IMG/VR virus record: IMGVR_UViG_3300005918_000012
Length of the DNA: 64,000 nt
Reading direction: 5' to 3' (one strand)
DNA from: a virus
The notes beneath the pieces were generated by a model that had not been told where the DNA came from, did not search any database, and was given only the letters and a program-made list of their open reading frames with translations. A program made the position numbers and the translations under genes. How positions within the stretch are numbered: the first letter of the stretch is position 1; the number at the start of each line of letters is the position of its first letter. This document shows, one piece after another, positions 21,501 to 64,000 of this stretch.

Positions 21501-22544
21501 ATGACCGATGAAACGAAACCAGAAGAAGCAAAACCAGCAGTTAAACCCGTCCCAGTTCCTCTAGGCATCGGGCTCGATATCGGAACTATGAATATTGTTG
21601 CTGCCCGTCGTGGGGGGAATGGCATTCAATCCAAACGGATGCGGGATGTATTCATCAGTTTACCTCTGACAGCCAAGAAGATGTTGAAATTGTCTGATAC
21701 CAGCTTTGTTGAGCGGGAAGATGACGTTTTGATTCTAGGAGACGCAGCTCTGGAAATGGCTAATGTTTTTGGCTCTCAACCTCGACGACCACTTTCAGAA
21801 GGAATCATTTCAGCTAGTGAAGTGGATAGTCTGGAGATTCTCGGATTACTTATCAAGAATGTTCTGGGAGAACCCCGAACAGAAAAAGAGCATTGTTACT
21901 TTTCTGTTCCGGCAGTTCCAGTTGATTCTGATAGAGATGTTATCTATCACCGAGGAGTTTTTGAACGTATTGTTTCAGAGTGTGGTTATACCCCTCATGC
22001 AGCCAATGAGGCTATGGGGATCGTATACTCTGAGACAGCTAAAGAAGGATTCTCTGGGATCGGTATCTCCTTCGGCTCAGGGATGACCAACGTGGCCTTG
22101 TCCATCAATACTATTGAAGGTTTGACGTTCTCTGTGTCACGAGGCGGTGATTGGATTGATATCGGTGCAGCCGGCTCTGTAGGTCAAACACAAGCTCGGA
22201 TATGTGCCTTGAAAGAAAAGGGTTTTGATTTAACTAAACCTATGGGTCGGGAACAAGAAGCTTTGGCATTCTATTATAAATCGGCCATTGATTATGCTTT
22301 GGATAAGATTGAAGAACGGTTCAAGTCTATTCAGAATCAATTCTCTCTGTCTAAGCCTATTCCTATTGTGATTTCTGGTGGTACAAGTAAAGCTGGTGGC
22401 TTCATGGATTTCTTTACCGAAGTTTTTGAGAAACGTCGGAAGAAGTTCCCTATTGAAGTTTCTGAGTTACGACATGCCAAAGAACCCCTAAATGCTGTAG
22501 CTTACGGGCTGCTGATTCAAGCTATCCAAGAACACGAGGATTAA
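21501..22544 (+). CDS. Actin-like (MreB/MamK/ParM superfamily) ATPase
   Basis: Phosphate-1 'GIGLDIGTMN', connect-1 'NEAMGIV', phosphate-2 'GISFGSGMTN', 'GGDWID', adenosine 'VISGGTS', connect-2 'PLNAVAYG'. Confidence 0.9.
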   Translation: MTDETKPEEAKPAVKPVPVPLGIGLDIGTMNIVAARRGGNGIQSKRMRDVFISLPLTAKKMLKLSDTSFVEREDDVLILGDAALEMANVFGSQPRRPLSEGIISASEVDSLEILGLLIKNVLGEPRTEKEHCYFSVPAVPVDSDRDVIYHRGVFERIVSECGYTPHAANEAMGIVYSETAKEGFSGIGISFGSGMTNVALSINTIEGLTFSVSRGGDWIDIGAAGSVGQTQARICALKEKGFDLTKPMGREQEALAFYYKSAIDYALDKIEERFKSIQNQFSLSKPIPIVISGGTSKAGGFMDFFTEVFEKRRKKFPIEVSELRHAKEPLNAVAYGLLIQAIQEHED

Positions 22545-22545
22545 G

Positions 22546-22878
22546 ATGGAAGACTTAAAGTTGTGTGGTGCTCTACAAAAGATAGCAGACGAGAACCCTG
22601 AAACTAGGAAACATCTGATTCCTATTATCAAACAAGCTGCAAAGAAAACTATGAAGGTAACGGAACTCCCCCCGAAGGAACGAAAGATTGCCGAAAAGAA
22701 AATGGCCAAAGGTTATAAATACATATGTCAGTTTACTACGATTGACGGTGATTTAGATCCGATGTATTTCAAATCTCCAAATGAGATTGGACCTTTTAGG
22801 CGTCAGTATCAGAAGGACCACGGCACAACAAAAATAAAGTGGACTTTCAGATTAGAACCTGCAAAAGGTAAGAAATAA
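22546..22878 (+). CDS. KLAN-module protein (divergent module at N-terminus)
   Basis: LQKIADENPETRKHLIPIIKQAA. GAGG SD. Confidence 0.75.
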   Translation: MEDLKLCGALQKIADENPETRKHLIPIIKQAAKKTMKVTELPPKERKIAEKKMAKGYKYICQFTTIDGDLDPMYFKSPNEIGPFRRQYQKDHGTTKIKWTFRLEPAKGKK

Positions 22879-22879
22879 G

Positions 22880-23062
22880 ATGACTGATATGGATGCACAA
22901 GCAGCTTTAGAGTATTTATCTACACCTAAAGGGCAAGCTGAATTAAAAGCTGCTTTTGAACGAGGTCGGGAAGAAGCTGACCGTATCAAGGAAGCTGTAA
23001 AGATGGGTCTTGATAGTTTAAGAGTCCCTTTTGGACCCAAACATGGGTGGGGTTTACGATGA
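22880..23062 (+). CDS. Small hypothetical helical protein
   Basis: 60 aa, tightly packed, ATGA overlap with the next gene. Confidence 0.6.
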   Translation: MTDMDAQAALEYLSTPKGQAELKAAFERGREEADRIKEAVKMGLDSLRVPFGPKHGWGLR

Positions 23063-23424
23063 AGTCATCTAATGAAAACGGGTATCCTGTTATAACACCT
23101 GTACCCACAGTCAAGGATCATTTCGAACACCTAGCTAGTGTATTTACAGATATAGAAAAGACTGATGTTAAGGTAACGAATGTTGTGATGACACCAGGGT
23201 TCTGGGTAAGTCTGAAAAAAGCCAAACATTACAAGGACTCTTGTGATTTGGGTAGTAGTGGTGGAGGTCACATTGGATATGTCTGGGGTTCTAAGATATG
23301 GCTTTCTGAGGTGGTTGCTGGTGGTGAAGTTGTTGCTTATGGAGAAGATGATCCGAACTTCTTAAAAGATTGGCCTGCCTTTGCTAATTGGGGTTTTAAC
23401 TGGGGTTCTAATTTAAAGGATTAA
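23059..23424 (+). CDS. Stand-alone MCP A-domain-like protein 1
   Basis: LASVFTDIEKTDVKVTNVVMTP..W..LKK...GHIGYVWGSKIWLS aligns with MCP LADAFSLVERHDLRVARIYMNA..Y..LRK...GLMATLWGAQIVTS. Confidence 0.7.
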   Translation: MKSSNENGYPVITPVPTVKDHFEHLASVFTDIEKTDVKVTNVVMTPGFWVSLKKAKHYKDSCDLGSSGGGHIGYVWGSKIWLSEVVAGGEVVAYGEDDPNFLKDWPAFANWGFNWGSNLKD

Positions 23425-23427
23425 ATA

Positions 23428-23883
23428 ATGAGTGGAGCTCTCACAAATAGTCATCCTTTTGTAGAGGAAGAACAACGGATTGAGGATATCCCGTCTTTCG
23501 GGATACCTACACAAGAATCTTTTTATGAACTGCCCGAAGGTGTTGTAGCTACTTGTGTTTTATTGAGTTTTGAAGATCCTTTTGAGGTTTTAGCTAAGTT
23601 GTTTGATTTTATAGAGAAAACAGGCCAGTCAGTAAAGCATGTGGTAATAAATCATCAAACTTGGATAAGTATGTTGAAGGCTCAACAAAGTATACGAAAT
23701 ATAATGAGTTTAGTTAATATAGGACTTAGCGGTTATGTGGGGTGTTTGTGGAGTGTTCATGTCTGGGTTTCCCCAAGTGTCTCTAAAGATAAGTGTCACG
23801 GGTATAGTGAGTATGCTACTGAGGAATTTAAGGGTGCATACCCACAGTGTATTGAATACTTTAATAAAAACTTGAAAGATTAG
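23428..23883 (+). CDS. Stand-alone MCP A-domain-like protein 2
   Basis: LAKLFDFIEKTGQSVKHVVINHQTW..MLK...GYVGCLWSVHVWVS. Ends in NLKD like copy 1. Confidence 0.65.
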   Translation: MSGALTNSHPFVEEEQRIEDIPSFGIPTQESFYELPEGVVATCVLLSFEDPFEVLAKLFDFIEKTGQSVKHVVINHQTWISMLKAQQSIRNIMSLVNIGLSGYVGCLWSVHVWVSPSVSKDKCHGYSEYATEEFKGAYPQCIEYFNKNLKD

Positions 23884-23886
23884 ATT

Positions 23887-24156
23887 ATGTCACAAGATCA
23901 AAGAGAAGCTGCACGGATTAAGAAAGTTACAGTTACCATCCAGCAGGACTGGGAAGCTGTTGACCCGGACAATTCTGAAGATGTAGCTCTGGCTACCAAA
24001 CTCAGTGAAGATATTGTGTGGAACCTGAACCCGAAGCAAATGAACATCAGCCAGAAACGGGATGTGAATCCTGTCAGAGTTGCTGGGTCAGAAAAAATCG
24101 TGGAAATGGATGTTGGTCCCACTACTGCTACCATTTCAGGTGAACTGCTCGACTGA
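23887..24156 (+). CDS. Small protein resembling a fragment of the tail tube protein
   Basis: QMNISQKRDVNPVRVAG-SEKIVE vs tube QFNPSQSRTVEPVRGIGFGDKVSE. Confidence 0.65.
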   Translation: MSQDQREAARIKKVTVTIQQDWEAVDPDNSEDVALATKLSEDIVWNLNPKQMNISQKRDVNPVRVAGSEKIVEMDVGPTTATISGELLD

Positions 24157-24174
24157 AAATCAAAGGATTAGATT

Positions 24175-24582
24175 ATGGAATTTAAAAGTTTAGAAGAAAT
24201 CAAAAAAGTCATTCCTGTCCCCACAAAAGAAGATGTTATAAGTAAATTGGTCGAAACGGAACACGACCTGCTGGCAGGGAAGAAGTTTGCAAGTCAAGTA
24301 GCTGATCTTTTTTCTGAGGTGGAAAAAAAGAATGGTGATAGAGTTGCAAATGTGGTTTTTAATGCCCTTACTTTTCAGGATTTTCGTAAAGCTGATCCTT
24401 ACTTAATGGATATTGAATCTCAAGCAACGAGATTAAAAAATGGTTTGGTTGGGACATTGTGGGGAGCAAACGTCTGGGTTGCTGGAAAAGATAACCCTAA
24501 AGCATATGAAGAAAATGGTTCTGATTTTGCTAAGGATTATCCTGCCTTTAATCAGTTCCAGCAACAAATAGGTTTAAAATAA
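24175..24582 (+). CDS. Stand-alone MCP A-domain-like protein 3 (closest to MCP)
   Basis: ADLFSEVE...RVANVVFNA...DFRK...MDIESQATRLKNGLVGTLWGA vs MCP ADAFSLVE...RVARIYMNA...DLRK...LDIESQATLLKTGLMATLWGA. Confidence 0.9.
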   Translation: MEFKSLEEIKKVIPVPTKEDVISKLVETEHDLLAGKKFASQVADLFSEVEKKNGDRVANVVFNALTFQDFRKADPYLMDIESQATRLKNGLVGTLWGANVWVAGKDNPKAYEENGSDFAKDYPAFNQFQQQIGLK

Positions 24583-24618: not shown

Positions 24619-25818
24619 ATCTATTTTAGATTAACAGAAGCATTAAAAAGCCGGTTCATCATGGAGCTGAGGAATTATTGGCAATACCATCCTCTGTATC
24701 CTGATCTTCCAGATCATATCATAGGGAAATATTCTTTCCGAGAACGCCCTTCCACGGGCATCATTGTGAAAGTTGGTGGGGGTAGTCATGTCATGTTATC
24801 TGCTGACAACTACATCGGAATAATAGAGAGTTACGTTCATCTGGCTCGATACAAGAATAAGCCTGGAATGGCTATTGAATGGGTACGTGAAGATTCTGTA
24901 GCTATTCAGAACAATAATGGGTATTTCCCATCCCGGGCTGGTGTCTATTATATAGAGCTGACTGAAGATAAAGAGTTTTACGTGGATGCTCTATTGAATG
25001 TCTACAATGAGATTATGACCTCAGTGGATACTTTCACATATTCGATGTCTGCCGTCCCTTTGACTGGGACAATTCGAGTTTTTGAGATGCCTGCTCGGTA
25101 TCAACTTATTGAAGGTGAGAACTATTCAGTTGATGTGGACGGGCAAGGAAATCCGACAGGTGAAATTACTCTGACACAAGCTCTGACAGGTGGGAGATAT
25201 TTGGTTTCAGATTACAAATACCCAACTGGTTCTCAGGGTCCTTATACTATAGATCCAGGCTTTGCAAACAACACAGCTATCCCCGGAGTCGTTCTGGCTT
25301 TTGGCAGAAGAAATAAAAAAGGTGATGTTCAAGCAGTGGTTGTTGAAGAAATCCGACGACCCGCTTCCTTGGCCTACGGAGGTAAATGGGAGCTCTCTAT
25401 GGAGTTCGATGTGACGGCCAGAGATGTGTTTGCTCAACAGGAGATTGCTGATCAAACGGTTATCTATTTGTGGGGTATTCTTAGACCCCAATTATCCTCT
25501 GAAGGTATTGAAATGTCTGAGATTTCTCTTGGTGGGGAGTCTGAGGAAGTCTATGATGAGAATGGGGATGATTATTTCTATAATTCTTCGTTTTCTTTGA
25601 CTGTCACAACTGATTGGGAGATCAATATTCCATTGAGTGCTTTCCTCCGTCAAGTGACCCCATCTACCCGAGTTTACTCTCAATATATTGCCTCGTTGAC
25701 AGAAGATCAGTTGAGATCTGCCGGGACAGGAGTTCGTCAGGCAGAGGATATGGGATTGGAATTAATGAGAGACCCATTCTTTGTGGGTCGGATAGCTACT
25801 TTTGAAGTTATTCGTTAA
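24619..25818 (+). CDS. Putative tail terminator/neck protein with an inserted Ig-like domain; probable ATC start (first ATG at 24661)
   Basis: Position before the sheath gene. C-terminal 'WELSMEFDVTARDVFAQQEIAD...YFYNSSFSLTVTTDW'. GGAGGT SD lies 5 nt before an in-frame ATC. Confidence 0.6.
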   Translation: MYFRLTEALKSRFIMELRNYWQYHPLYPDLPDHIIGKYSFRERPSTGIIVKVGGGSHVMLSADNYIGIIESYVHLARYKNKPGMAIEWVREDSVAIQNNNGYFPSRAGVYYIELTEDKEFYVDALLNVYNEIMTSVDTFTYSMSAVPLTGTIRVFEMPARYQLIEGENYSVDVDGQGNPTGEITLTQALTGGRYLVSDYKYPTGSQGPYTIDPGFANNTAIPGVVLAFGRRNKKGDVQAVVVEEIRRPASLAYGGKWELSMEFDVTARDVFAQQEIADQTVIYLWGILRPQLSSEGIEMSEISLGGESEEVYDENGDDYFYNSSFSLTVTTDWEINIPLSAFLRQVTPSTRVYSQYIASLTEDQLRSAGTGVRQAEDMGLELMRDPFFVGRIATFEVIR

Positions 25819-53183: not shown

Positions 53184-56100
53184 ATGAGTTTCCAATTTGA
53201 CGGAAAAGTATTAGAAGGTGTACGGCAATCCCCAGTGAATGCTGCCACCACAGATGAACCTGGAACGGCAGTTATCCAAGATATCCGACCTCTGCCCCAA
53301 ACTTTTGAATTAGATGCCCCGGATTTGGTGTCTGTAGCTGCCGATCAGTATCGGGTAGCTGCTTTGGACACCCCTGGTTCAACCGTTATGGAGTATTTAG
53401 TTTGGGCACAGAATTCAGCTCAGTTAGCAACTGTTGATAACCCTGATTGGTGGACAGATGGTGGCACTGGTGAGGTACCTACTGGAGATTTAGATGTTAT
53501 TGCTTACCCTGCTACAGTTGATGAGGTTACACATACTGACGGGACGGCTAATGTTGTCATCGAGGATGAAGGAAATCGGAGCATTGGGTCTATTTTATGG
53601 CTCGTAGTTGCTCGTGGTGACGTGGAATACGATGATGACGGTTGGGTAGACTCCGATGATCCTACACAAGGCAGAGAAGGAGATAACCCTTACCTTTTCT
53701 GGCAGATTAATACTGCAAATCAGAACCCTGTATCTGGGATGGTTACTCTGACTCCTGCTCAATTAGTTCTTTTGGATGGAGGTCTTTCCATTGAACGTGG
53801 TGATAGGATTGTCAAAGTTGGATACACAGTAGCTCCCCCGAGGTTCTGGTGGACTCGTAACGACCGGTATGAACAGCGTTTCGGATGGAACGGTTCAACC
53901 CAGCGGTGGGAACCTTGGAAAGGTTCTGGGGTCAAAGAGTTGGGGTATCTTCTTTTAGATGAAGCCTCTTTCACGTTGAGTCCAAAAATCCAAAACCTCC
54001 CAGTTGGAGCAATTCTTCCGGGTGATGGCACACCTTCAGGTGCTGATAAATACTCAATGATCCGACTCGGTTCTGATCCCGGAGTAAATTCAACTCCGGC
54101 AGCTCCAAGTGATGAGTGGGCAGGCATTATGGTTAAACTTGATGATGCCGTTGAGGATTTCGATTTCAGTCAAGCCGGCACTCTGATTGCCGTTATGGGT
54201 CAGACCAATGGAAAACTGGTATTTAACCCGGCTTATGTGCTGCTTAATGCCGGAAATAAGATATGGTACTCATACAAGAGTTTTAATGCTGATGAGGATG
54301 GTGTCATAGGGAGCATTCAAGATGCTCGAACAGATGATTTGTATCTGGCTCCATTGCCTGGTCCAACTGATGCTCCACTCCTTCGGTACGGCAATCGGAC
54401 GTACCTTGATGCCGTGACGTTCAATACTGACGGTGAGATGGATGCCGCTGGTGATCCTGACGAGGGTCAGATATATTTGTCCTTATCAACTGGACGGTTG
54501 GTACTTAGTTACGTTGATCTCGGTAAAGTTGATCCTGATAATACTGCTACATTTTCTAAATACTATTTTGGAAACAAAGTGGTCTACGATGGAGTAGCTC
54601 TCTGTCAACGTCCTCAGCCGACAAAATCTCCTGTTCGTTTAGTAAATGCAGCAGGGAATCTCACAATAGATGCCTCTGATGCATACCTCCCAGATTCAGA
54701 AACATTACCGGACAGTTATAATCCTTCTGATTGGAACGATGCTTATAGAGGTTTGGGTGTCTCTGGGATATTACAAGTTCCCGATGAGTTGGGTGCTTTA
54801 CCCCAACTCCCAACTGGGGGTAGAGAAGTCCCAGTTCGACCAGGTGGTGATAACTATGATGATGGAACTAAAGACCCGAACATTGGGATGGTGAGAGCAT
54901 TAAAAGATACCGTAAGTGATACTATCATCTTTGGTAGGGATTATGCTGTTGCCGAAGTCATCCCTTACAGAATCCCAGATGACAAACCTTCAAAGATTCG
55001 TAGCCCACAGGCTTACGTCTGTCTTCAAAAAGATCCTAGTGACCAAGGTTCTGAAGTTCAATTTAGCCATACAGATGCCCATCGATTGAGTGGTGATTAT
55101 ATTTATTTTCTCCAAGCAGCTCTGACTCCTGCTATTTTTTCAATAGAAGCTAAGATTTATTCCCGGAACAGAGACATCTTCCGTTTCGATGGAGATGAGA
55201 TTTTTTATTTTAATGTGGATTCAGCAGATTATAGCTGGGACCCAGTTGCTTTGATGGCAGCTAATCCTGATAATACCTATTTCACGGCAGAGGAAGTAGC
55301 CGAGGATATGGCTACGGGTGCTCCTGTAACCGCTATGAATGGTCGGATTATTATCACTGGGGCGGTCTCGGTTGAGATTGGTTTCGGTGGGACTGATAAA
55401 GACCTCTCCGGTGCTACAGCCTTGGGATTCCTCCCCGGTTGGAAAGCTGTTGAGGGTGTCTCTTGTTGGTTACCTGATTCTGGGGTTAGTGTAGGTTTAT
55501 CTCGAAGTCCTGTTAATCTGGATAAATCGAAATCAACCTGTGATTTTTCTTATGTCGGGCGTGTCCAAGATGGTATTTTGAGTGATGGCTTACAGCCGAA
55601 TCCTTATTTCTTTTTCATCAATGCACCCTTACAAGATATTGCTGGGTACGATGACAATCTATTCTTCCGCTTGATAAGTTATATCGTTGATGGAGATGCT
55701 GTTAGAGTCGTCTTTAAGACTTTAGATCATTACAAGGACATCATCTATCGGTTCGGCCAGAAGAAGTTTGATTGGGTTGCTGAAGATTCTTATGTCCAAC
55801 CTGTCGAGCAGGCTCTTAACACCCTGACATTAGGGAATGTTGGGGTTGTCCCCGAAGCTATGGTCGGAGCTCCTGGGATTGGTGGTGGTCTGTATGTGAA
55901 TTCTGGGGAAGGTGGTTTTGTTCTTCAAGCTCAGGATGACGATTATATCCTACCGTTTGAGGGTGCCCCCGGAAATGCAACATTGATTCATCGGTTTGGT
56001 AGAAGAGTTCAGTTTGGTGCTCAAGGATCGTTCTCCGCCGGATCAGATCAATTTATAGATAACACCGTAGACTTCACAGACCCTGAAAAGGAAGTGCTTT

Positions 56101-59100
56101 CAGGTTATAGGCTCAAGATCACCAATGGGGATGCTGAAGGTTCATATTATATCACGGCTGTTACAGAACATACCCTGACGGTTACCCCCTCCTTCTTATG
56201 GGCTTCCGATCAGCCTGCTGCCTGGGAGTTGTTTGAGGGTTATACTAAAGATACTTACGACCCAATGGTCGTAGCTGATATGCTATATCAAGAATTCAAC
56301 CCCTTAACAGAAGAACCTTTTCAGATTCGAACATTGTCGTATGTAGGTAGGGTTCTTCCTGATTCTGCAACACAAGCAGCAAACCAATTAAAAGCCAATA
56401 TCCAAGGAGCTTTGTCCAGTGGCCGACCCATTAATGTGCGGTACGGAGCTGTAGCCCCGACTGATTCAAACACCGTTGCTTTAACTTGGCTGACGAAAAC
56501 TGATTTAGGGGTTATGGAAAATGGTTTGTTGATATTACCTGACGTAACTTCTCTCAGGTTTACCCAAGAAGCATTCAGCATTCAAGTTGGGACGGTCATA
56601 TTCTCTCATGGTGACCCAATACACCCCTTAGTAGGTGTTTCGGCCTTCAGCGTCGACCCTGGAGCTTCTATAGAGTATCTGACGGTAGATACTGAGTTCC
56701 CAAAAGGGCAGTTGAAGTTTGGTACTGAGGTTCTGGGAGCATATGCAGAGAGTCATGTTTTAGTTAATGATGATTTCCTTCCAGCAACGGAATTGGCTTC
56801 TTTACACGGTGAGATAAGTCCTTTGACAGGCCAGCTCAATTTATCTGAAGTTGACCTTCTAAGTTTTGCCGGAGAGAGAGCTTACTTCGTCGAGCAGATG
56901 GATACTCAGGAAGACCTTTCTGTTCAACCTATGAGCGGTAGTGTTGCTTTCCTTCGGCCTTTACCCAAGGGTGTGTTGGTTGAGATGGTGTATTATGCTG
57001 CTGACCTCGAAGGCCGTAAAGTACAATATCCTGTCCTTCGATTGGACGGGACTCCCGTACAAGATCAAACAGAAACTCGTCAGATCACAGAATTCCTGCC
57101 AGTGTTTATCCGAGACGAAGTGGCTGAACGAGAAACAGATCGAATCTTTTACTTCAATACGGACTATAATACTGTTTACTCTGACATTGACCCGATCATT
57201 TACATCAGATCCGCCCAGCAAAACTATAATGAAACCAACTGCTTAGTTGATTATATGCCAGATGGCAGAGGCCGATTGACGTTTATTACGTATGATGTTA
57301 CTTCCGATGTGAATGTTAAAGTTACATATGCTGTGGCAGAGTCTCAGGGTGGAGAACGTGCATACGAAACCAGCACGAAACCAGTCTATCGTCCACCTTT
57401 CTTCATTACAGCCGATCAGAACAGATTTGGTTTACACGGAGATAGAGAGAATGAGTTTGAAGCAGGCCAACTGCTCAGGTTTGGCAAAGAGAATTTCTAT
57501 GTAAAAGGAACTAAGTATTACCCAGAGGTATCCGATTCGGATGGGAACGTCACAGGAGATATTACCGCTGTTTATATTTTCCCTCAGACTATTCAGGAAG
57601 TCGGGAGTCGAGCTCCTGCTCGTGACGTTCTGACCTTGAAAACTCTGATGCCTATTACTCCCGTAGTTGATCCTAATGGAGATGTAGTTGGACCGAATGG
57701 AGAAGCAATAGCAGTCACGACAACGGCAGCCTTGGGGTTGATGTTTGAGGTAAGTATTATAGAGTATCCGTTCGAGCCGATCAATCGTGGTCAGACAGAC
57801 ATTGCATTCAAAGGAAATCTGACAAGTTTAGCTGTCCCCGGCCATATCCTTGAGTTCGGTGGTATCCCTTATACTATTGCTGGAGCTGAATTGTCTGATG
57901 ATGGTTCACGAACAGTTATTTCGATTGCAACCGGTATCCGACAGGCTTTCACTGTGGCAGATGACCCCACCGTTCGACTCACATGTCGTCCTGTATATCC
58001 TCCTAACGTGGTGGATTTGCTGGGGGTTGGGCAGTTTGTTCCTGAAGAAGGGTATGAGCTGGTTCAGTATGGGTTGACAGATGGAGATGATAATGTTCTT
58101 CCGGGGAAAACCTTGGTAGACACTGTGGATTATGCCTTTGATCTCTCTAATGGTTTGGTGACGCTCTTAGCTCCTATCCAAGAGCCTTTGAATGCTCCCG
58201 AGTCATTGAAGATGTCCTTTGTCAGGCTTCGGCAGTTAGCCCCTTACGTTCAAGAGGGTGCTATTATCAGGCCGACATATTCAGCAACCTATCAGAATAT
58301 AATAACCCCGAGTGAAGACAACGGGTTATTGGGGGCTACATTACAAGGACGATACACGTTCCGTAACCCTGACTCATTCTATTTCCGAATTGTTCCAATG
58401 ACTCAGTTCCTCGTTGAAGTGACTGAAGAAGTCATTAAGGAAATCACGAGTAAGCAGGCAGCCAGCGGAGCTCCTCAATCTGGTGGTGGGGATGATAACT
58501 GGCAGCAGGGTCGGATAGGTTTGAAATCTGAACGACGACACCTGATGAACAAAGATCGAATGGCTCGAACATTCTTAGATTTTTACAATACGACGACCAA
58601 TGCTTTTGAGCAATTTAGAGAAACCATATCAGGAGAGTTGGTTGGGGATCGTGATGGCAAGTTCCGATTCTGGATTGGCAAAGGAAATGAATGGCCGACT
58701 CCGGGTTATGAGGATGAGATCACGGGTGCTTTGACACCTCGAAATATTTTCACTGAGGTCTTTACCTCTCGGGCTGAGGGTTACGTTTACATACAGCCTT
58801 ATGATGCTTTGGTAGAACCTCAGTCCTTTGAGGTTTCAGGCTCTGAAATGACCGGTAAAGTTGTGAATATTGATGAACTTCATAGTATGATGGATGAGCA
58901 ACGTGATCTCGTAGCAAATGAGGTTGATGATATTGTTATGAGTCGGTACGATGCCATCTTCAAATGGAAAACAGGTTGGCCTTTCTATTCTTTCATTCTG
59001 AAAGGCCAGTTCTATTGGATGTATCAGACTCAGAAGTTCTCTCGGTTGTTCCCTTTGTTTACAAGAACATTCCTCAGAACGAATCCGGGAATCGATGCTG

Positions 59101-62100
59101 ATCTGGATGCTCAAGAAGTAGGCTTCTATTCGGCAGGGCGTTATGACTCTGAAGATGAGTATCAGAAAACAACGGGTAATACGATTGCCCAGTTAGCTAA
59201 TCCTGTAGTAGGGGATATAACTTCTGTCAAGTCCTTGTTCTTGAAGAAACGAAAAGCCCGTGCAAGAGTCTGGCAGTATTTCCCGAATGGTGTTCCAGCT
59301 GCTGCTTTCAGCCCAACCTCACCTGAAATTACTTCACCGTGTTTGATTGCTACGCCCGGTTGGATCAGTGATTTCCCAATAGACCCGACCACAGGGTTCC
59401 CTAACATATCACAATTCCTCATTAATAACGGGGACATACCTGATATTGAGACTGGTGATCCTGAGATGGCCGTCCCTCCGTTTGAAATTGGTGATCAGAT
59501 TGCTTGGGGCAAACCGACAGGTAGAGTATATGATGCTTTCTGCGGGTCTAAAAAAACAGATGGTGATTTTACAGGCTTATACGTTGAGAGTGTTCTCTAT
59601 GGGTGTGTCATTACATTCATGGATGTTGATGATGTGCTGATAACTGATCCAAATAACATCTTAGTTGGAACCAATGCTCAAACAGGTTTTCCTGCCGATG
59701 GGTTTATAGAACTGGGAGACACCGTTCAATCAATAGATATTTCAGGGACTGTTGAGATCAGCAATCCTCCTACTACTGAGGATATGGAACTGGTAGCTGC
59801 TAATCAGAGTAATTACCGACCAGGGTTCGATTTCCAGTACACTCAGGATGGTCAGATACTGGATGTAACATTACCTTCGAAAGACGACCCTCATTTCTGG
59901 CATTTGAAAGAGATGTTGGGACAGAACCCAATACCACCTTTGACTTGTTTAGACGGAGCCGTTGAATTTTACTATGACGGCCAGAACCCTCTATTGATTC
60001 CTGCCTTAGAAGGAGATCCCCAAGATGACTCCGGAGATTTTCATATTCCATTCCTGCAGGTGAAGAATACAGAACTAGACCGGTTCAACGAAGGTTCCAT
60101 TATTGCTGACAGTTTGAAACAAGATAACTTGGGTGTCGGCCTCTATCCTAACGAATGGTTGGGGAATGACGGCACAGTGACGACAATCCCCGCAGTTAAT
60201 CCCGGTCAAGAGAATATTGTTCCTGACGACCAGCCAGCTGCTTTACTGACTACGACAGATGTAGACCCTGCAACATTACCTCCGGGGTCGGCTAATCTTG
60301 ATGAATATGACCTGTTGTTTACCCAAGTGCAAGGGACAAGTCCTTTCACAACTAATGGGTTGGTAACTCCTGATCCAGGAGCAATGGGGATTCTTTCCGT
60401 AGGGCGGATAACTCCACGGAATGGGGCTTGGACACTTTCAAATGACGGCCAGCTCCCAACTGAAACTGGAGAAGGTTCTATGATCGAACCTCCACGGTTT
60501 GTAACTCAAACCAAAGATGGCTCTCCGATTCGGTACAAGATCGAAAATGCCATGGTGAGTGAAGAAAACACAGGTTCGTTGATTGGTATTAAGTTACGTA
60601 CTTACGATGCTGCCGCTCTGGCCACACATTATATGGTGTTGGATTTCACTGATATCAATATTGACATGAGTGGTTTGGATGCTATTTACAATGCTTCATC
60701 AAACAACACAATCACCGTTAAGCTCCTTTCACACGATGACTCGGCTGCTATTGTTGGTCCGGGTGGAGTACCAGCTCCAATCCCAGGTTCAGTATTACTG
60801 ACACTAGGGATTCAACAAAGCACAGGTCTGACAGTTACGAACTATACTGACCCTCCAGTAACGACCACGAACTTAACTAATGCCCAGTTCGGTGTGGACG
60901 GTGCTGTCATTGGGGCACTCTTGGGTGTAGACCCAGCGGATTACATTATTGGTAACGCTCGGTATGTCCTGCTGACTTTCAGTACCCTTACAACTCCTGT
61001 GGTGGATTTGATCTGGGATGTGCCGAACCCTCCTGTAGCTACAAGTACTCGTCCTGATTGGTTTATTCCTTATGGGGTGTCTGATTACTTGGGTGACCTT
61101 TATACCGAAGCAGATTACGGGATGGATTTTGTATTTGATGTGGACACCTACAATATAGCAGGGACGCTCGGAGAATCCACGACAGCTTATATTGGTTCTG
61201 ACCGCTTAACCTTCAATGAGGGCATTGATTTCAGCAAGGCTGAGGGACGTGGAGCAGTTCATCCCTTGAATCCTCTTACTGAGTTGGAAACTTTGTTATC
61301 TATTTATGAAGTGACTGTTGGACATAATAGTGTTCCGACCGTATATGCTTCAACTATCAACACATTCTGTAACGGTGATAATGGTGGGCTGCCCGTACCT
61401 TTCACTTTCCTTCCACGGGATGGTGTTGTAGGAGTCTTTGGCTCACTCGTCGTTCATGGATTTGAGGGTTATGACGGAGCTACAGGGAATATTCCTGTCA
61501 TCGGTAATCTGGCTACTTTCTCAGGAGCTGCTTCAAACAATAAAACTGCAACCTCCCTTCCTATTTGTGAGGGTACTGGATTGATGGAGAGTACTTTCTC
61601 AGGTATAACTGATGCCGAACTCTATGATAATAAGGTGTCAGATGCTATTATTACTGTGGGGGATGTTTCTCAGATAGAGTCTGGTGACATTCTAGTTATC
61701 AAACAAGACGTAAATGGGGAAGCTACAACTAAGGCTGGAACTTACCTTGTTCGACACGGTATTCCACAACATGATTCGGTAGGTTCCCCTACTGATGAGT
61801 GGTGGTGGTCAGCCCCTTCGTCAGTAGCAGATAATGAAACCGGCTGGTGTCCAGTTCATTTCCCCACCGTGGTTAGTTATGATGACGGAACTCATCAATT
61901 AACCATATCTGATCCAGCTCTTATCAGGCCGTTAGAGAGTGGGGTGAATTCTGAATTCCCGATTGGACACGAATATGGATTCCCAGAACCTGCAGCAGTA
62001 CCTACACCTGGTAATTATACGTTCGTGTATATTATCAGGAATGTTTCAGGTCTTTCGACAGCTGATCCAGGTGGTACTCTTGGTGATGTTGATTTTGATG

Positions 62101-64000
62101 CTGCCGTCACCACATATAAAAAATCAATACTTAGGCTTCAGTATGTTTCCATCAGTGTTGTTGCAGGTCAATGTGTTTTGGAGTTGGCCCCTCTAGGAAC
62201 GGAGGATGAGGCCTGTTATGCTGGCGGTGACCCTGCAGTAGCACCAGGAGATGTGAATGATCCTGTTATTCGGACGACTGCTGAATTAGCACTTTTGTTG
62301 GACGATGCTTACAAAGTATCAGGGATGAAAGCATGGCCAGTTAATGTTTCTGGTGAGAATTACGGTCTGCCTGCAAATAATGTGGTTGGTTATGATGACA
62401 CTGCTGGTGGGACTGTCATCAATGGTTTTGAGCGGTTGTATGTGGACAGTCGTTTGGTAGATACCACTCCGGTTTTATCGACGGCTGCCGGTAGTGCTAT
62501 TGTATCTGCATTTGCAGGTGCTGATGAATGGCTTCCTGTCACTTATGACCCTGAAACCAATAATGATTTCTACGAAGACCGAACTACTCCGGTTTATAAT
62601 TTGGTCGTGGGGGCATTGATTAATACAGTTACTACAACGACTTGGGAAACTTTAGATTGGCCAACAGGTGTTGATTATATTGGGCGTGATGCAAACATGC
62701 CTAATTTCTATAGTCATTGTCTGTTGCCTTCTTCTCATTTGACATTAGTTGATCCCAGCCAAGACCCGATCACTGACCCTGACCTTTATAACGGTCATCG
62801 GGCACAATCAGGCATTTTCCTTGAACCTTCATTCCCTCGGCAGGCTTTAAATCTGGTCGGGGGTCATCCGAAGGTTGTAGATGATAATGATGATCTACCT
62901 GACCCGACACTATTATCCGACCTTGAACGGGAGATCGGTGCTAGAGATTCAAACGCTTATGGGATTTTTGGTGGCCCACCTCTTACTTTTACAACACCCT
63001 CAGAAGTATCATTTGAAGTTCGACGTATCAGACGTTTCCATGATGTTCAGGATGTCAATTTAAAACTGGCACCTCTCCGTTACGTTTACGAGATTCGTCG
63101 TGGTCGAATTACTGACTATGACTGGGACCCGACAACTACAAATCAACGTGGTCTCGTGACAGCCGATAATTTCGTAATGAACTTTGACCCAGCTCATGTG
63201 TCAGGAACATCAAAAACTCCTGATGTCTGGAACGACGGTGAGACATATACTGGGACAAACCTCGGTACTTTTAAGACAGGCTTACGGATCAATGAAGATG
63301 TCAATGTCCATCCCGGAGATATGTTTAGGCTCCTGTCTGATGAAGATGGCTCTGTGTTAGAAGAAGTCAGGATTGAAAAGGTTCTTGAGATTGGCAAATT
63401 ACAACTGGCTGCTCCTGGACTTGTAACTCGGACAGCAGCTCAACTGGCTGCCGTAGGTGGCAAAATGAGATTCGAGATATTCCTTAACCGTGCTCCTGTT
63501 CCTTTAGAACAATCTGCTGAGGAACTCCTTGAATTGATTACCGATCAGGAAGTTTATCGGACGGATGCAGAGTATGGTGACACTGATGTTGAAGACCAAG
63601 GCGGTTACGTCCCAGAGATGACTGGCCCTGATTGGGATGACTTTGCTAACCAATTAAAAGATGACTCTGTAGACGGTGTTTCTCAGACCTTTAGTGGCCT
63701 TGGTATCCGTAAGAAAGACATCGTGATTATTGATGCAGCAGGCAAGATTCCTCAACGATCAGGAGATATCCCTTACATTCAAGAACATGGGATGCGTCCT
63801 ATCGGTGACATGGGTGTTTTCGGTCGTGAGGGTTATACAGGAGATGATGTTTTAAGTAATGTTTACGAAGCAGGTTCTACTGACCCCCGTGATGATAACC
63901 GTGGTTATTACCGGGTCACTAAGATTGAAAGTGATACCTTAACTGTCACAGGTGTCTCTACCTTTGCTGGTGATCTGAATGACGATGTGATCTTCGGTAC
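53184..64000 (+). CDS. Giant virion protein (>3600 aa; baseplate wedge/fibre-like), truncated by the window end
   Basis: ATG directly after the previous TAG (MSFQFDGKVLEGVRQSP...). The same frame reads as protein at the end of the window (...FAGDLNDDVIFG). It is missing from the ORF track, consistent with no in-window stop. Acidic and beta-rich. Confidence 0.8.
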   Translation, partial: MSFQFDGKVLEGVRQSPVNAATTDEPGTAVIQDIRPLPQTFELDAPDLVSVAADQYRVAALDTPGSTVMEYLVWAQNSAQLATVDNPDWWTDGGTGEVPTGDLDVIAYPATVDEVTHTDGTANVVIEDEGNRSIGSILWLVVARGDVEYDDDGWVDSDDPTQGREGDNPYLFWQINTANQNPVSGMVTLTPAQLVLLDGGLSIERGDRIVKVGYTVAPPRFWWTRNDRYEQRFGWNGSTQRWEPWKGSGVKELGYLLLDEASFTLSPKIQNLPVGAILPGDGTPSGADKYSMIRLGSDPGVNSTPAAPSDEWAGIMVKLDDAVEDFDFSQAGTLIAVMGQTNGKLVFNPAYVLLNAGNKIWYSYKSFNADEDGVIGSIQDARTDDLYLAPLPGPTDAPLLRYGNRTYLDAVTFNTDGEMDAAGDPDEGQIYLSLSTGRLVLSYVDLGKVDPDNTATFSKYYFGNKVVYDGVALCQRPQPTKSPVRLVNAAGNLTIDASDAYLPDSETLPDSYNPSDWNDAYRGLGVSGILQVPDELGALPQLPTGGREVPVRPGGDNYDDGTKDPNIGMVRALKDTVSDTIIFGRDYAVAEVIPYRIPDDKPSKIRSPQAYVCLQKDPSDQGSEVQFSHTDAHRLSGDYIYFLQAALTPAIFSIEAKIYSRNRDIFRFDGDEIFYFNVDSADYSWDPVALMAANPDNTYFTAEEVAEDMATGAPVTAMNGRIIITGAVSVEIGFGGTDKDLSGATALGFLPGWKAVEGVSCWLPDSGVSVGLSRSPVNLDKSKSTCDFSYVGRVQDGILSDGLQPNPYFFFINAPLQDIAGYDDNLFFRLISYIVDGDAVRVVFKTLDHYKDIIYRFGQKKFDWVAEDSYVQPVEQALNTLTLGNVGVVPEAMVGAPGIGGGLYVNSGEGGFVLQAQDDDYILPFEGAPGNATLIHRFGRRVQFGAQGSFSAGSDQFIDNTVDFTDPEKEVLSGYRLKITNGDAEGSYYITAVTEHTLTVTPSFLWASDQPAAWELFEGYTKDTYDPMVVADMLYQEFNPLTEEPFQIRTLSYVGRVLPDSATQAANQLKANIQGALSSGRPINVRYGAVAPTDSNTVALTWLTKTDLGVMENGLLILPDVTSLRFTQEAFSIQVGTVIFSHGDPIHPLVGVSAFSVDPGASIEYLTVDTEFPKGQLKFGTEVLGAYAESHVLVNDDFLPATELASLHGEISPLTGQLNLSEVDLLSFAGERAYFVEQMDTQEDLSVQPMSGSVAFLRPLPKGVLVEMVYYAADLEGRKVQYPVLRLDGTPVQDQTETRQITEFLPVFIRDEVAERETDRIFYFNTDYNTVYSDIDPIIYIRSAQQNYNETNCLVDYMPDGRGRLTFITYDVTSDVNVKVTYAVAESQGGERAYETSTKPVYRPPFFITADQNRFGLHGDRENEFEAGQLLRFGKENFYVKGTKYYPEVSDSDGNVTGDITAVYIFPQTIQEVGSRAPARDVLTLKTLMPITPVVDPNGDVVGPNGEAIAVTTTAALGLMFEVSIIEYPFEPINRGQTDIAFKGNLTSLAVPGHILEFGGIPYTIAGAELSDDGSRTVISIATGIRQAFTVADDPTVRLTCRPVYPPNVVDLLGVGQFVPEEGYELVQYGLTDGDDNVLPGKTLVDTVDYAFDLSNGLVTLLAPIQEPLNAPESLKMSFVRLRQLAPYVQEGAIIRPTYSATYQNIITPSEDNGLLGATLQGRYTFRNPDSFYFRIVPMTQFLVEVTEEVIKEITSKQAASGAPQSGGGDDNWQQGRIGLKSERRHLMNKDRMARTFLDFYNTTTNAFEQFRETISGELVGDRDGKFRFWIGKGNEWPTPGYEDEITGALTPRNIFTEVFTSRAEGYVYIQPYDALVEPQSFEVSGSEMTGKVVNIDELHSMMDEQRDLVANEVDDIVMSRYDAIFKWKTGWPFYSFILKGQFYWMYQTQKFSRLFPLFTRTFLRTNPGIDADLDAQEVGFYSAGRYDSEDEYQKTTGNTIAQLANPVVGDITSVKSLFLKKRKARARVWQYFPNGVPAAAFSPTSPEITSPCLIATPGWISDFPIDPTTGFPNISQFLINNGDIPDIETGDPEMAVPPFEIGDQIAWGKPTGRVYDAFCGSKKTDGDFTGLYVESVLYGCVITFMDVDDVLITDPNNILVGTNAQTGFPADGFIELGDTVQSIDISGTVEISNPPTTEDMELVAANQSNYRPGFDFQYTQDGQILDVTLPSKDDPHFWHLKEMLGQNPIPPLTCLDGAVEFYYDGQNPLLIPALEGDPQDDSGDFHIPFLQVKNTELDRFNEGSIIADSLKQDNLGVGLYPNEWLGNDGTVTTIPAVNPGQENIVPDDQPAALLTTTDVDPATLPPGSANLDEYDLLFTQVQGTSPFTTNGLVTPDPGAMGILSVGRITPRNGAWTLSNDGQLPTETGEGSMIEPPRFVTQTKDGSPIRYKIENAMVSEENTGSLIGIKLRTYDAAALATHYMVLDFTDINIDMSGLDAIYNASSNNTITVKLLSHDDSAAIVGPGGVPAPIPGSVLLTLGIQQSTGLTVTNYTDPPVTTTNLTNAQFGVDGAVIGALLGVDPADYIIGNARYVLLTFSTLTTPVVDLIWDVPNPPVATSTRPDWFIPYGVSDYLGDLYTEADYGMDFVFDVDTYNIAGTLGESTTAYIGSDRLTFNEGIDFSKAEGRGAVHPLNPLTELETLLSIYEVTVGHNSVPTVYASTINTFCNGDNGGLPVPFTFLPRDGVVGVFGSLVVHGFEGYDGATGNIPVIGNLATFSGAASNNKTATSLPICEGTGLMESTFSGITDAELYDNKVSDAIITVGDVSQIESGDILVIKQDVNGEATTKAGTYLVRHGIPQHDSVGSPTDEWWWSAPSSVADNETGWCPVHFPTVVSYDDGTHQLTISDPALIRPLESGVNSEFPIGHEYGFPEPAAVPTPGNYTFVYIIRNVSGLSTADPGGTLGDVDFDAAVTTYKKSILRLQYVSISVVAGQCVLELAPLGTEDEACYAGGDPAVAPGDVNDPVIRTTAELALLLDDAYKVSGMKAWPVNVSGENYGLPANNVVGYDDTAGGTVINGFERLYVDSRLVDTTPVLSTAAGSAIVSAFAGADEWLPVTYDPETNNDFYEDRTTPVYNLVVGALINTVTTTTWETLDWPTGVDYIGRDANMPNFYSHCLLPSSHLTLVDPSQDPITDPDLYNGHRAQSGIFLEPSFPRQALNLVGGHPKVVDDNDDLPDPTLLSDLEREIGARDSNAYGIFGGPPLTFTTPSEVSFEVRRIRRFHDVQDVNLKLAPLRYVYEIRRGRITDYDWDPTTTNQRGLVTADNFVMNFDPAHVSGTSKTPDVWNDGETYTGTNLGTFKTGLRINEDVNVHPGDMFRLLSDEDGSVLEEVRIEKVLEIGKLQLAAPGLVTRTAAQLAAVGGKMRFEIFLNRAPVPLEQSAEELLELITDQEVYRTDAEYGDTDVEDQGGYVPEMTGPDWDDFANQLKDDSVDGVSQTFSGLGIRKKDIVIIDAAGKIPQRSGDIPYIQEHGMRPIGDMGVFGREGYTGDDVLSNVYEAGSTDPRDDNRGYYRVTKIESDTLTVTGVSTFAGDLNDDVIFG

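Follow-up and report, generated by a model that had tools for sequence, protein, structure and literature searches.

The window analysed here, a stretch of 64,000 nucleotides from the IMG/VR virus record IMGVR_UViG_3300005918_000012, is a 64-kb piece of the genome of a huge uncultured phage. It starts inside the gene for an HK97-type major capsid protein (MCP), so that this gene is 5'-truncated and only the C-terminal 190 residues are encoded (1-573, + strand). The fragment matches the PHROG family phrog_2522, 'major head protein' (E 3e-30). Its identity to the capsid protein of LR745208, an uncultured phage of 485 kb, is 84.7%, as compared with 50% for that of Tunturiibacter phage Tunturi_5 and 38% for gp27 of Bacillus phage G. 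A full-length MCP of ~290 aa is available from the contig L020, whose capsid protein is 98% identical to that of the window. At the other end, one ORF of >3,605 aa (53184-63998) runs off the window, and upstream of it lie ORFs of 1,781, 1,356 and 1,099 aa, all on the + strand.

Between these extremes, and within the late structural operon, lies a compact block of small genes (22546-24582) that we refer to as the cassette. Its upstream bound is an actin-like gene of the Volactin family (21501-22544, +; PF25216, E 8e-76), an assignment on which this ORF was rejected as a candidate MCP. Downstream it is bounded by a gene for a 385-aa structural protein (24661-25818, +), which has 43% identity to LR745208 by tblastn and whose Tunturi_5 homologue, found in the same way, carries the annotation 'tail terminator'. 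The cassette opens with two small ORFs of 110 and 60 aa (22546-23062, +) that are absent from LR745208; the former has no match in Pfam, PHROG or PADLOC, and the latter none in PADLOC. Then follow three related genes, here called minis, and one unrelated ORF. Mini-A (23059-23424, +) encodes 121 aa, or 125 aa if translation begins at the GTG at 23047, and mini-B (23428-23883, +) encodes 151 aa; both are recognised by the family profile described below (E 1e-24 and 8e-26, respectively), and mini-B, which has an orthologue in the protein P0007, also finds the MCP by BLASTP (E 0.002). Mini-C (24175-24582, +), the subject of this analysis, encodes 135 aa from an ATG start with AAGGA 8 nt upstream, and an identical protein is present on 18 contigs, the largest of 402 kb. 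When the family profile was run over the whole window, minis A, B and C and the MCP (E 7e-21) were matched and no other ORF was. The mini genes share the strand and the tight packing of the late structural genes, and no promoter-like site is found from the actin-like gene to the end of the cassette, nor a terminator-like site on this strand; the minis would therefore be co-produced with the MCP.

The unrelated ORF, of 89 aa (23887-24156, +), lies between mini-B and mini-C. It has orthologues in the strains L002, G021 and G015, is kept in every variant of the cassette with a dN/dS of 0.15-0.34, and is represented by only 4 clusters in 5.8 billion. A proposal that it mimics the tail tube is unsupported: a pairwise BLASTP match of E 7e-4 extends over 42 residues, yet profile support is absent, with a four-orthologue profile missing the window's tube-like ORF and hhalign giving a probability of 4%. 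No PHROG family matches the gene presumed to encode the tube, and the AlphaFold2 model of the 89-aa protein (pLDDT 51) is unusable.

The cassette is hypervariable and accessory. The entire 2-kb block 22546-24582 is missing from LR745208, where the homologue of the 385-aa gene comes immediately after the actin-like gene. Among 22 related huge-phage records, it is carried only by two of the window's own lineage (MCP 98-99% identical), and is absent from 19, including the complete genome G002 and the 88-93% complete genomes G012 and G014; of the relatives with MCPs 87-93% identical, most lack it. Three other records contain different A-domain ORFs, of the type termed class II below, elsewhere in the genome. 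Where the cassette is present its content differs: the window has A, B, the 89-aa ORF and C; L002 has B, a 90-aa ORF, an extra 124-aa paralogue and C; G021 has A, a 90-aa ORF and a variant C'; and in G015 mini-A occurs as a fusion, along with a 99-aa ORF and a copy of C without the W-G-A strand and the tail. Mini-A has orthologues in G021 and G015. Between near-identical strains minis come and go, are duplicated or fused, and become truncated. The slot itself is old, as class I genes, the type to which mini-C belongs, adjoin or lie near the actin-like gene in other lineages: a 444-kb phage has a single class I gene directly after it, and a third lineage has one 3 kb upstream of it, making three lineages in all (the window, L136 and L147).

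Several further features of these genomes may be recorded here. The actin-like gene, which encodes a complete actin-fold protein, is also found at L001:4896-5939, L136:8902-9930 and L147:7140-8165, 75-82% identical; it keeps its place in the late structural module, and in every case a Zn-ribbon gene and the gene for a 1,700-aa-class protein follow a few genes downstream of it. Directly upstream of the mini cassette of strain G015, a 169-aa ORF (L131:63-572) carries a terminase-like motif with an E of 5e-12 to the family member P0097. Near the class I mini of L147, an 842-aa gene (L147:889-3417) gives weak to faint matches to Hint, intein-splicing and LAGLIDADG domains, suggesting an intein. 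The MCP-proximal region is strain-variable as well, since an 883-aa ORF (L020:3653-6304) follows the MCP gene of L020 in the place taken in the window by a 344-aa ORF (1026-2060).

A preliminary description of this DNA had presented mini-C as a near-verbatim copy of the A-domain of the phage's own MCP. The homology on which that description rested is sound: BLASTP aligns residues 42-100 of mini-C (24298-24474, +) with residues 66-123 of the MCP fragment at 30/59 identities (E 7e-16), a span comprising a helix, a strand, a helix, a hairpin and the 'LWGA' strand, and the 20-residue stretch singled out earlier is indeed identical at 16 of its 20 positions. The likeness is far from verbatim, as the aligned part covers 59 of 135 residues (44%) at 51% amino-acid identity and the DNA identity over it is 59%. 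At the 30 shared residues, 16 codons are identical, where 12.3 +/- 2.5 would be expected from the codon usage of the window, and synonymous sites show no excess of identity. The persistence of similarity in the DNA, also claimed, holds in part: matching 21-nt words agree at 19/21 positions, and a pair of such matches arose in none of the shuffled versions of the window, but with codon sharing near expectation, the likeness of the DNA amounts to amino-acid identity plus codon bias. The other two copies have diverged, as had been stated, with mini-A 28% and mini-B 21% identical to the MCP core. Over the same core mini-C is 48% identical to the window's MCP, the highest value in class I, although 47% is attained by P0011, which comes from an unrelated contig; the class I median to this MCP is 34%, much like the 31% found within the class. 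The residues of the MCP family that mini-C keeps are F46, E50, R56-V57, N63, R71, L87, G90 and W96-G97-A98, and those common to the minis and the MCP are A-domain residues conserved throughout the MCP family. Such residues could be fold determinants only, and mimicry of the capsid surface is on that account unproven.

Structure prediction is in keeping with this picture. An AlphaFold2 model of mini-C, built on 52 homologues, has a pLDDT of 95.7 and a pTM of 0.81, and comprises a short N-terminal helix (residues 6-12), a 36-residue helix (18-53), a strand, a helix, a strand, a short helix, a hairpin, a strand and two short C-terminal helices, with the A-domain core at ~37-120 and a D-Y-P motif in the helical tail. 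Exhaustive structural comparison (VIA) returns almost only the A-domains of HK97-fold proteins and encapsulins, at Z 5-6.2, and residues 37-120 superpose on 253-333 of HK97 and on 150-232 of phage G gp27. Among the best matches is PF0899 (2pk8), with Z 5.9, an rmsd of 2.6 and 72 residues aligned, and Foldseek gives the same picture with weaker scores. The Z values are modest taken alone; the sequences point the same way, in that the family profile has a single match in the PDB, residues 157-230 of phage G gp27 (6wkk; E 2e-18), and mini-C matches the MCP profile over positions 154-228 of 294 only. As structural matches and profiles agree, mini-C is predicted to be a complete HK97 A-domain (axial domain) flanked by an N-terminal helix and a C-terminal helical tail. 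Neither the model nor the profile match includes an N-arm, E-loop, spine helix or P-domain, so that the protein falls short of a complete shell-forming fold and could not be a shell subunit. A predicted complex of full-length MCP (alignment A4) with mini-C (A3) gave no support for an interaction, a result that counts neither for nor against one.

Mini-C has many relatives that are hard to find by simple means. A word-based search with its sequence retrieved only itself and one 67%-identical orthologue, and a pattern scan of IMG/VR with a narrower family alignment found 2 loci; a profile search of 1.84 billion representative proteins, by comparison, returned 341 clusters at 50% identity (E <= 1e-3), mostly of 120-220 aa. 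Of the best 152 matches, ~10 are true MCPs when compared with the MCP profile, and all the others match A-domain positions ~130-250 of 294 only. Two classes can be distinguished. Class I consists of ~130-aa proteins that carry a helix at the N-terminus and end in a tail with a conserved D-[FY]-P motif, this motif being present in 56/73 class I sequences, 0/74 of class II and 0/18 MCPs, and mini-C fits the class I profile end to end, including the helix and the tail (E 4.5e-38, profile positions 4-136). Class II is nearer to the MCP, with core identity of up to 72%, and has variable N-terminal extensions, tandem double domains, and fusions to a terminase-like ATPase or, in a related 619-kb phage, to a zinc ribbon. 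Eight nearly invariant residues are common to 52 family members, and the N-helix, the DFP tail and W101 are conserved additions of the family's own.

The minis are named by none of Pfam, the PHROG collection (as a family of their own), PADLOC or the ESM Atlas, and no family member matches a PADLOC model, while 15 of the 52 members match phrog_2522, the 'major head protein'. Searches of GenBank phages by tblastn with three members found no free-standing A-domain gene, and when the family profile was run against the cultured phages G, Tunturi_5 and Lu11 (the last a Pseudomonas phage) and against LR745208, it matched only their MCPs. Every long mini-bearing contig that was checked also has a phage-G-type MCP, and the family seems confined to phages with the parental type of capsid protein. 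Outside the slot by the actin-like gene, other members adjoin genes for lysis, replication or sugar modification.

Class II includes a number of unusual arrangements. In related huge phages of 372-619 kb, there are a very MCP-like protein of 146 aa that ends in a CxxC...CPxC zinc ribbon (L104:1336-1776, -), a 370-aa protein with its A-domain at the C-terminus (L102:688-1800, +), and a free A-domain ORF of 214 aa (L103:1165-1809, -). P0097 (543 aa) has a capsid A-domain at its C-terminus, fused to a region that resembles the large terminase subunit (phrog_2, E 1.6e-6). P0012, P0030, P0106 and the L102 protein all start with a shared basic R/K-rich motif followed by 'E-[KR]-T-G-x-S-Y-A-x-A'; two of this set have tandem A-domains, and the set has no Pfam match. 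On a 43.6-kb contig bearing the class II member P0096, a region 1.7 kb downstream (L139:12134-18127) encodes type I-C-like Cas5d, Csd1 and Cas7 together with a helicase.

Compared with the closest strain, mini-C has a dN/dS of 0.60 and a dN of 0.185, whereas the 385-aa neighbour has 0.084 and 0.048, respectively, and the MCP a dN/dS of ~0.03. In the comparison with the 444-kb phage, identity is 90.5% for the MCP, 75% for the actin-like gene, 52-64% for other neighbours and 34.6% for the mini in the same slot. Orthologues of mini-C with intact frames are 69%, 45% and 35% identical to it, at a dN/dS of 0.17-0.60, and the mini frames are intact in all strains but G015, whose mini-C looks degraded. 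Judged by these substitution patterns, the minis evolve many-fold faster than their neighbours, yet under net purifying selection.

Three kinds of known protein invite comparison. The MCP and phage G gp27 (PDB 6wkk; phrog_2522) contain the homologous A-domain, with the same succession of helix, strand, helix, hairpin, 'LWGA' strand and next strand, and the minis keep nearly all of its family-conserved residues; they differ in adding the N-terminal helix and the DFP tail, in being accessory and multi-copy, and in evolving ~20 times faster by dN/dS. The T4 vertex protein gp24 and the PICI capsid-size redirector Ccm are full-length capsid paralogues with altered roles. Like the minis, they are cases in which an HK97-fold capsid gene has been duplicated or captured and put to work beyond the main shell lattice, but these proteins retain the whole fold and co-assemble into capsids, whereas the minis have the axial domain alone. 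The closest parallel in architecture is offered by the Family 4 'A-domain encapsulins' (PF08967/DUF1884; PF0899, 2pk8), which likewise consist of the HK97 A-domain alone in ~100-130 aa. Family 4 has been reported only from Euryarchaeota (hyperthermophilic archaea) and two genera of Bacteroidota (Andreas & Giessen 2021, PMC8346489), where its genes lie downstream of a hydrogenase, OsmC, GAPDH or DeoC enzyme gene, and in one crystal structure the protein forms a dimer rather than a shell and is thought to bind other proteins (PMC8346489, PMC11664910). In contrast to these cellular two-gene operons with an enzyme, the minis are phage-borne, with the actin-like gene on one side and the tail-terminator-like gene on the other; they derive from a phage-G-type MCP, form tandem arrays in a hypervariable cassette, and come from non-thermophile metagenomes. 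None of the 52 family members matches PF08967 at E <= 0.01, and mini-C is without any Pfam family. The mini family shares the architecture of Family 4 and, on sequence and context, is not a member of it. A-domain mini-proteins encoded by phages, and decoys or countermeasures made from capsid fragments, were not encountered in searches of the literature.

How mini-C came to resemble the capsid protein can be addressed with more assurance than what it does. The preliminary description took its surface to be under selection to keep mimicking the current capsid, which corresponds to a recent partial duplicate of the MCP gene held capsid-like by gene conversion or co-evolution as two older copies drift. 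Mini-C is the most MCP-like member of its class, shares the 19/21 word with the MCP, and was not rejected from its own MCP lineage in a quick tree of 165 rows, for which a poorly optimised free search led the constrained tree to score higher (p 0.75 in that earlier AU test). A more careful tree of 58 sequences, restricted to the columns of the A-domain core, places a 97/87 branch between all class I proteins, including the three copies in the window, and all MCPs and class II; mini-C groups there with tail-bearing minis from unrelated contigs, and the MCPs of the window lineage form a 98/98 clade without any mini. Forcing mini-C and its orthologue into that clade costs 37.5 lnL units, and the AU test rejects a recent origin from this MCP lineage (p-AU 0.006). 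Gene conversion was rejected as a candidate on the codon count and DNA identity given above. The near-equal similarity of P0011, and the N-helix and tail shared across the family and absent from the MCP, likewise speak against tracking, and faithful mimicry of the capsid surface is disfavoured because the mini diverges fast while the MCP is almost invariant. A recent copy that tracks the capsid is therefore not supported, and this history is very improbable. Still less probable, to the point of being hardly credible, is that mini-C is an unexpressed remnant, debris left without function by a duplication of the capsid gene. In favour of this stand the dispensability and instability of the cassette and the degraded look of the G015 copy, without its W-G-A strand and tail; against it, every other strain keeps intact frames, as do orthologues across 35-69% identity, dN/dS stays under 1, a ribosome-binding site and operon packing are present, and a family of 341 clusters with eight near-invariant residues in 52 members and a confident predicted fold is not what debris would leave. 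With open frames, purifying selection, invariant residues and fold all in agreement, mini-C is predicted to be a working gene. The simplest reading of the sequences is that an ancestral A-domain was excised long ago, after which the MCP stayed near the ancestral sequence and each mini diverged separately, class I being an old, unnamed family descended from the phage-G-type capsid proteins; derivation of A-domain-only proteins from the MCP may have occurred repeatedly. In this identity and evolutionary history we have high confidence.

The function of such a protein is a more tentative matter, and three readings have to be weighed. Dispensability, changes in copy number, rapid evolution beside a frozen parent and a possibly repeated origin point to an accessory gene engaged with a variable partner, and a stoichiometric part of the virion would not show such behaviour. 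Bacterial defences including CapRel, Thoeris and CBASS are set off by major capsid proteins time and again (PMC13728456), and it is for this reason that a capsid stand-in is the reading we favour. A mini would be unable to build a shell, but would resemble unassembled capsid protein in its fold and possibly in part of its surface; it might thus serve in a conflict as a soluble stand-in for the A-domain of the MCP, binding and thereby blocking or titrating a variable partner that recognises the capsid protein. Host immune sensors triggered by major capsid proteins are candidates for this partner, and the tandem paralogues might each cover different ones. A soluble look-alike could equally trigger a capsid sensor instead of blocking it, and this mechanism, considered by itself, is tentative and on the whole unlikely to be correct in full.

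The minis could instead assist morphogenesis or form a minor part of the virion, the free A-domain attaching to the MCP of the same phage, on the axial face of its monomers or capsomers for instance, and acting as an assembly-delaying chaperone or cap, a modulator of size or vertices, or a minor capsid or neck component, perhaps together with the actin-like protein. In HK97 capsids the A-domains touch one another around the capsomer axes, and a role of this kind would suit genes within the late structural operon and the phage-G-type MCP in every long mini-bearing contig checked; the position of a mini adjoining the actin-like gene, or within 3 kb of it, in three lineages could also indicate it. 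It sits poorly with a cassette that most relatives with MCPs 87-93% identical do without, complete genomes among them, whose copy number and content vary by strain, whose products diverge far faster than any structural neighbour although the presumed partner is nearly invariant, and whose relatives lie among lysis, replication and sugar-modification genes; we regard it as rather improbable. Alternatively, the A-domain fold may have been reused as a small binding module for a protein or ligand unrelated to the capsid. PF0899 (2pk8), an A-domain-only protein with a Z of 5.9 to the mini-C model, is a precedent, as is the behaviour of Family 4 as dimers that co-occur with enzymes (PMC8346489, PMC11664910), and the family's own N-helix, DFP tail and W101, its varied genomic contexts and its fusions to unrelated N-terminal regions, including a terminase-like ATPase, can be understood in this way. 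No conserved enzyme partner adjoins the mini genes, however, and the family is seemingly confined to phages with the parental MCP type; moreover, if class II derivatives, with core identity of up to 72%, arose repeatedly, likeness to the MCP would itself seem to be what is selected. Such exaptation is, in our estimation, distinctly improbable too. Fast divergence does not separate conflict, morphogenesis and exaptation, and relaxed constraint would equally produce it. Returning to the capsid stand-in, its extension to the wider group, namely that huge phages of the phage G lineage evolved, possibly repeatedly, A-domain stand-ins in variable tandem arrays that decoy or block MCP-triggered sensors, is doubtful. 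For the explanation as a whole, combining the identity and evolution of mini-C with the conflict mechanism, we would lean slightly against rather than for it.

Proteins consisting of the HK97 A-domain alone were already known; what is new here is a virus-borne, uncharacterised form that metagenomes contain in abundance. Few triggers of bacterial immunity are as common as capsid proteins, and the minis provide a testable link to immunity of this kind, the locus offering an abundant family of 341 clusters, predicted to be well folded, whose tandem arrays change from one near-identical strain to the next. More generally, if the predicted structures are a guide, the HK97 axial domain would be a self-sufficient folding unit that has been excised and reused more than once, which bears on how the capsid fold is exapted. 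Should the decoy reading prove true, the minis would constitute a new class of anti-defence protein, cut out of the trigger itself; should it prove wrong, they would represent an independent, virus-borne parallel to the cellular A-domain encapsulins.
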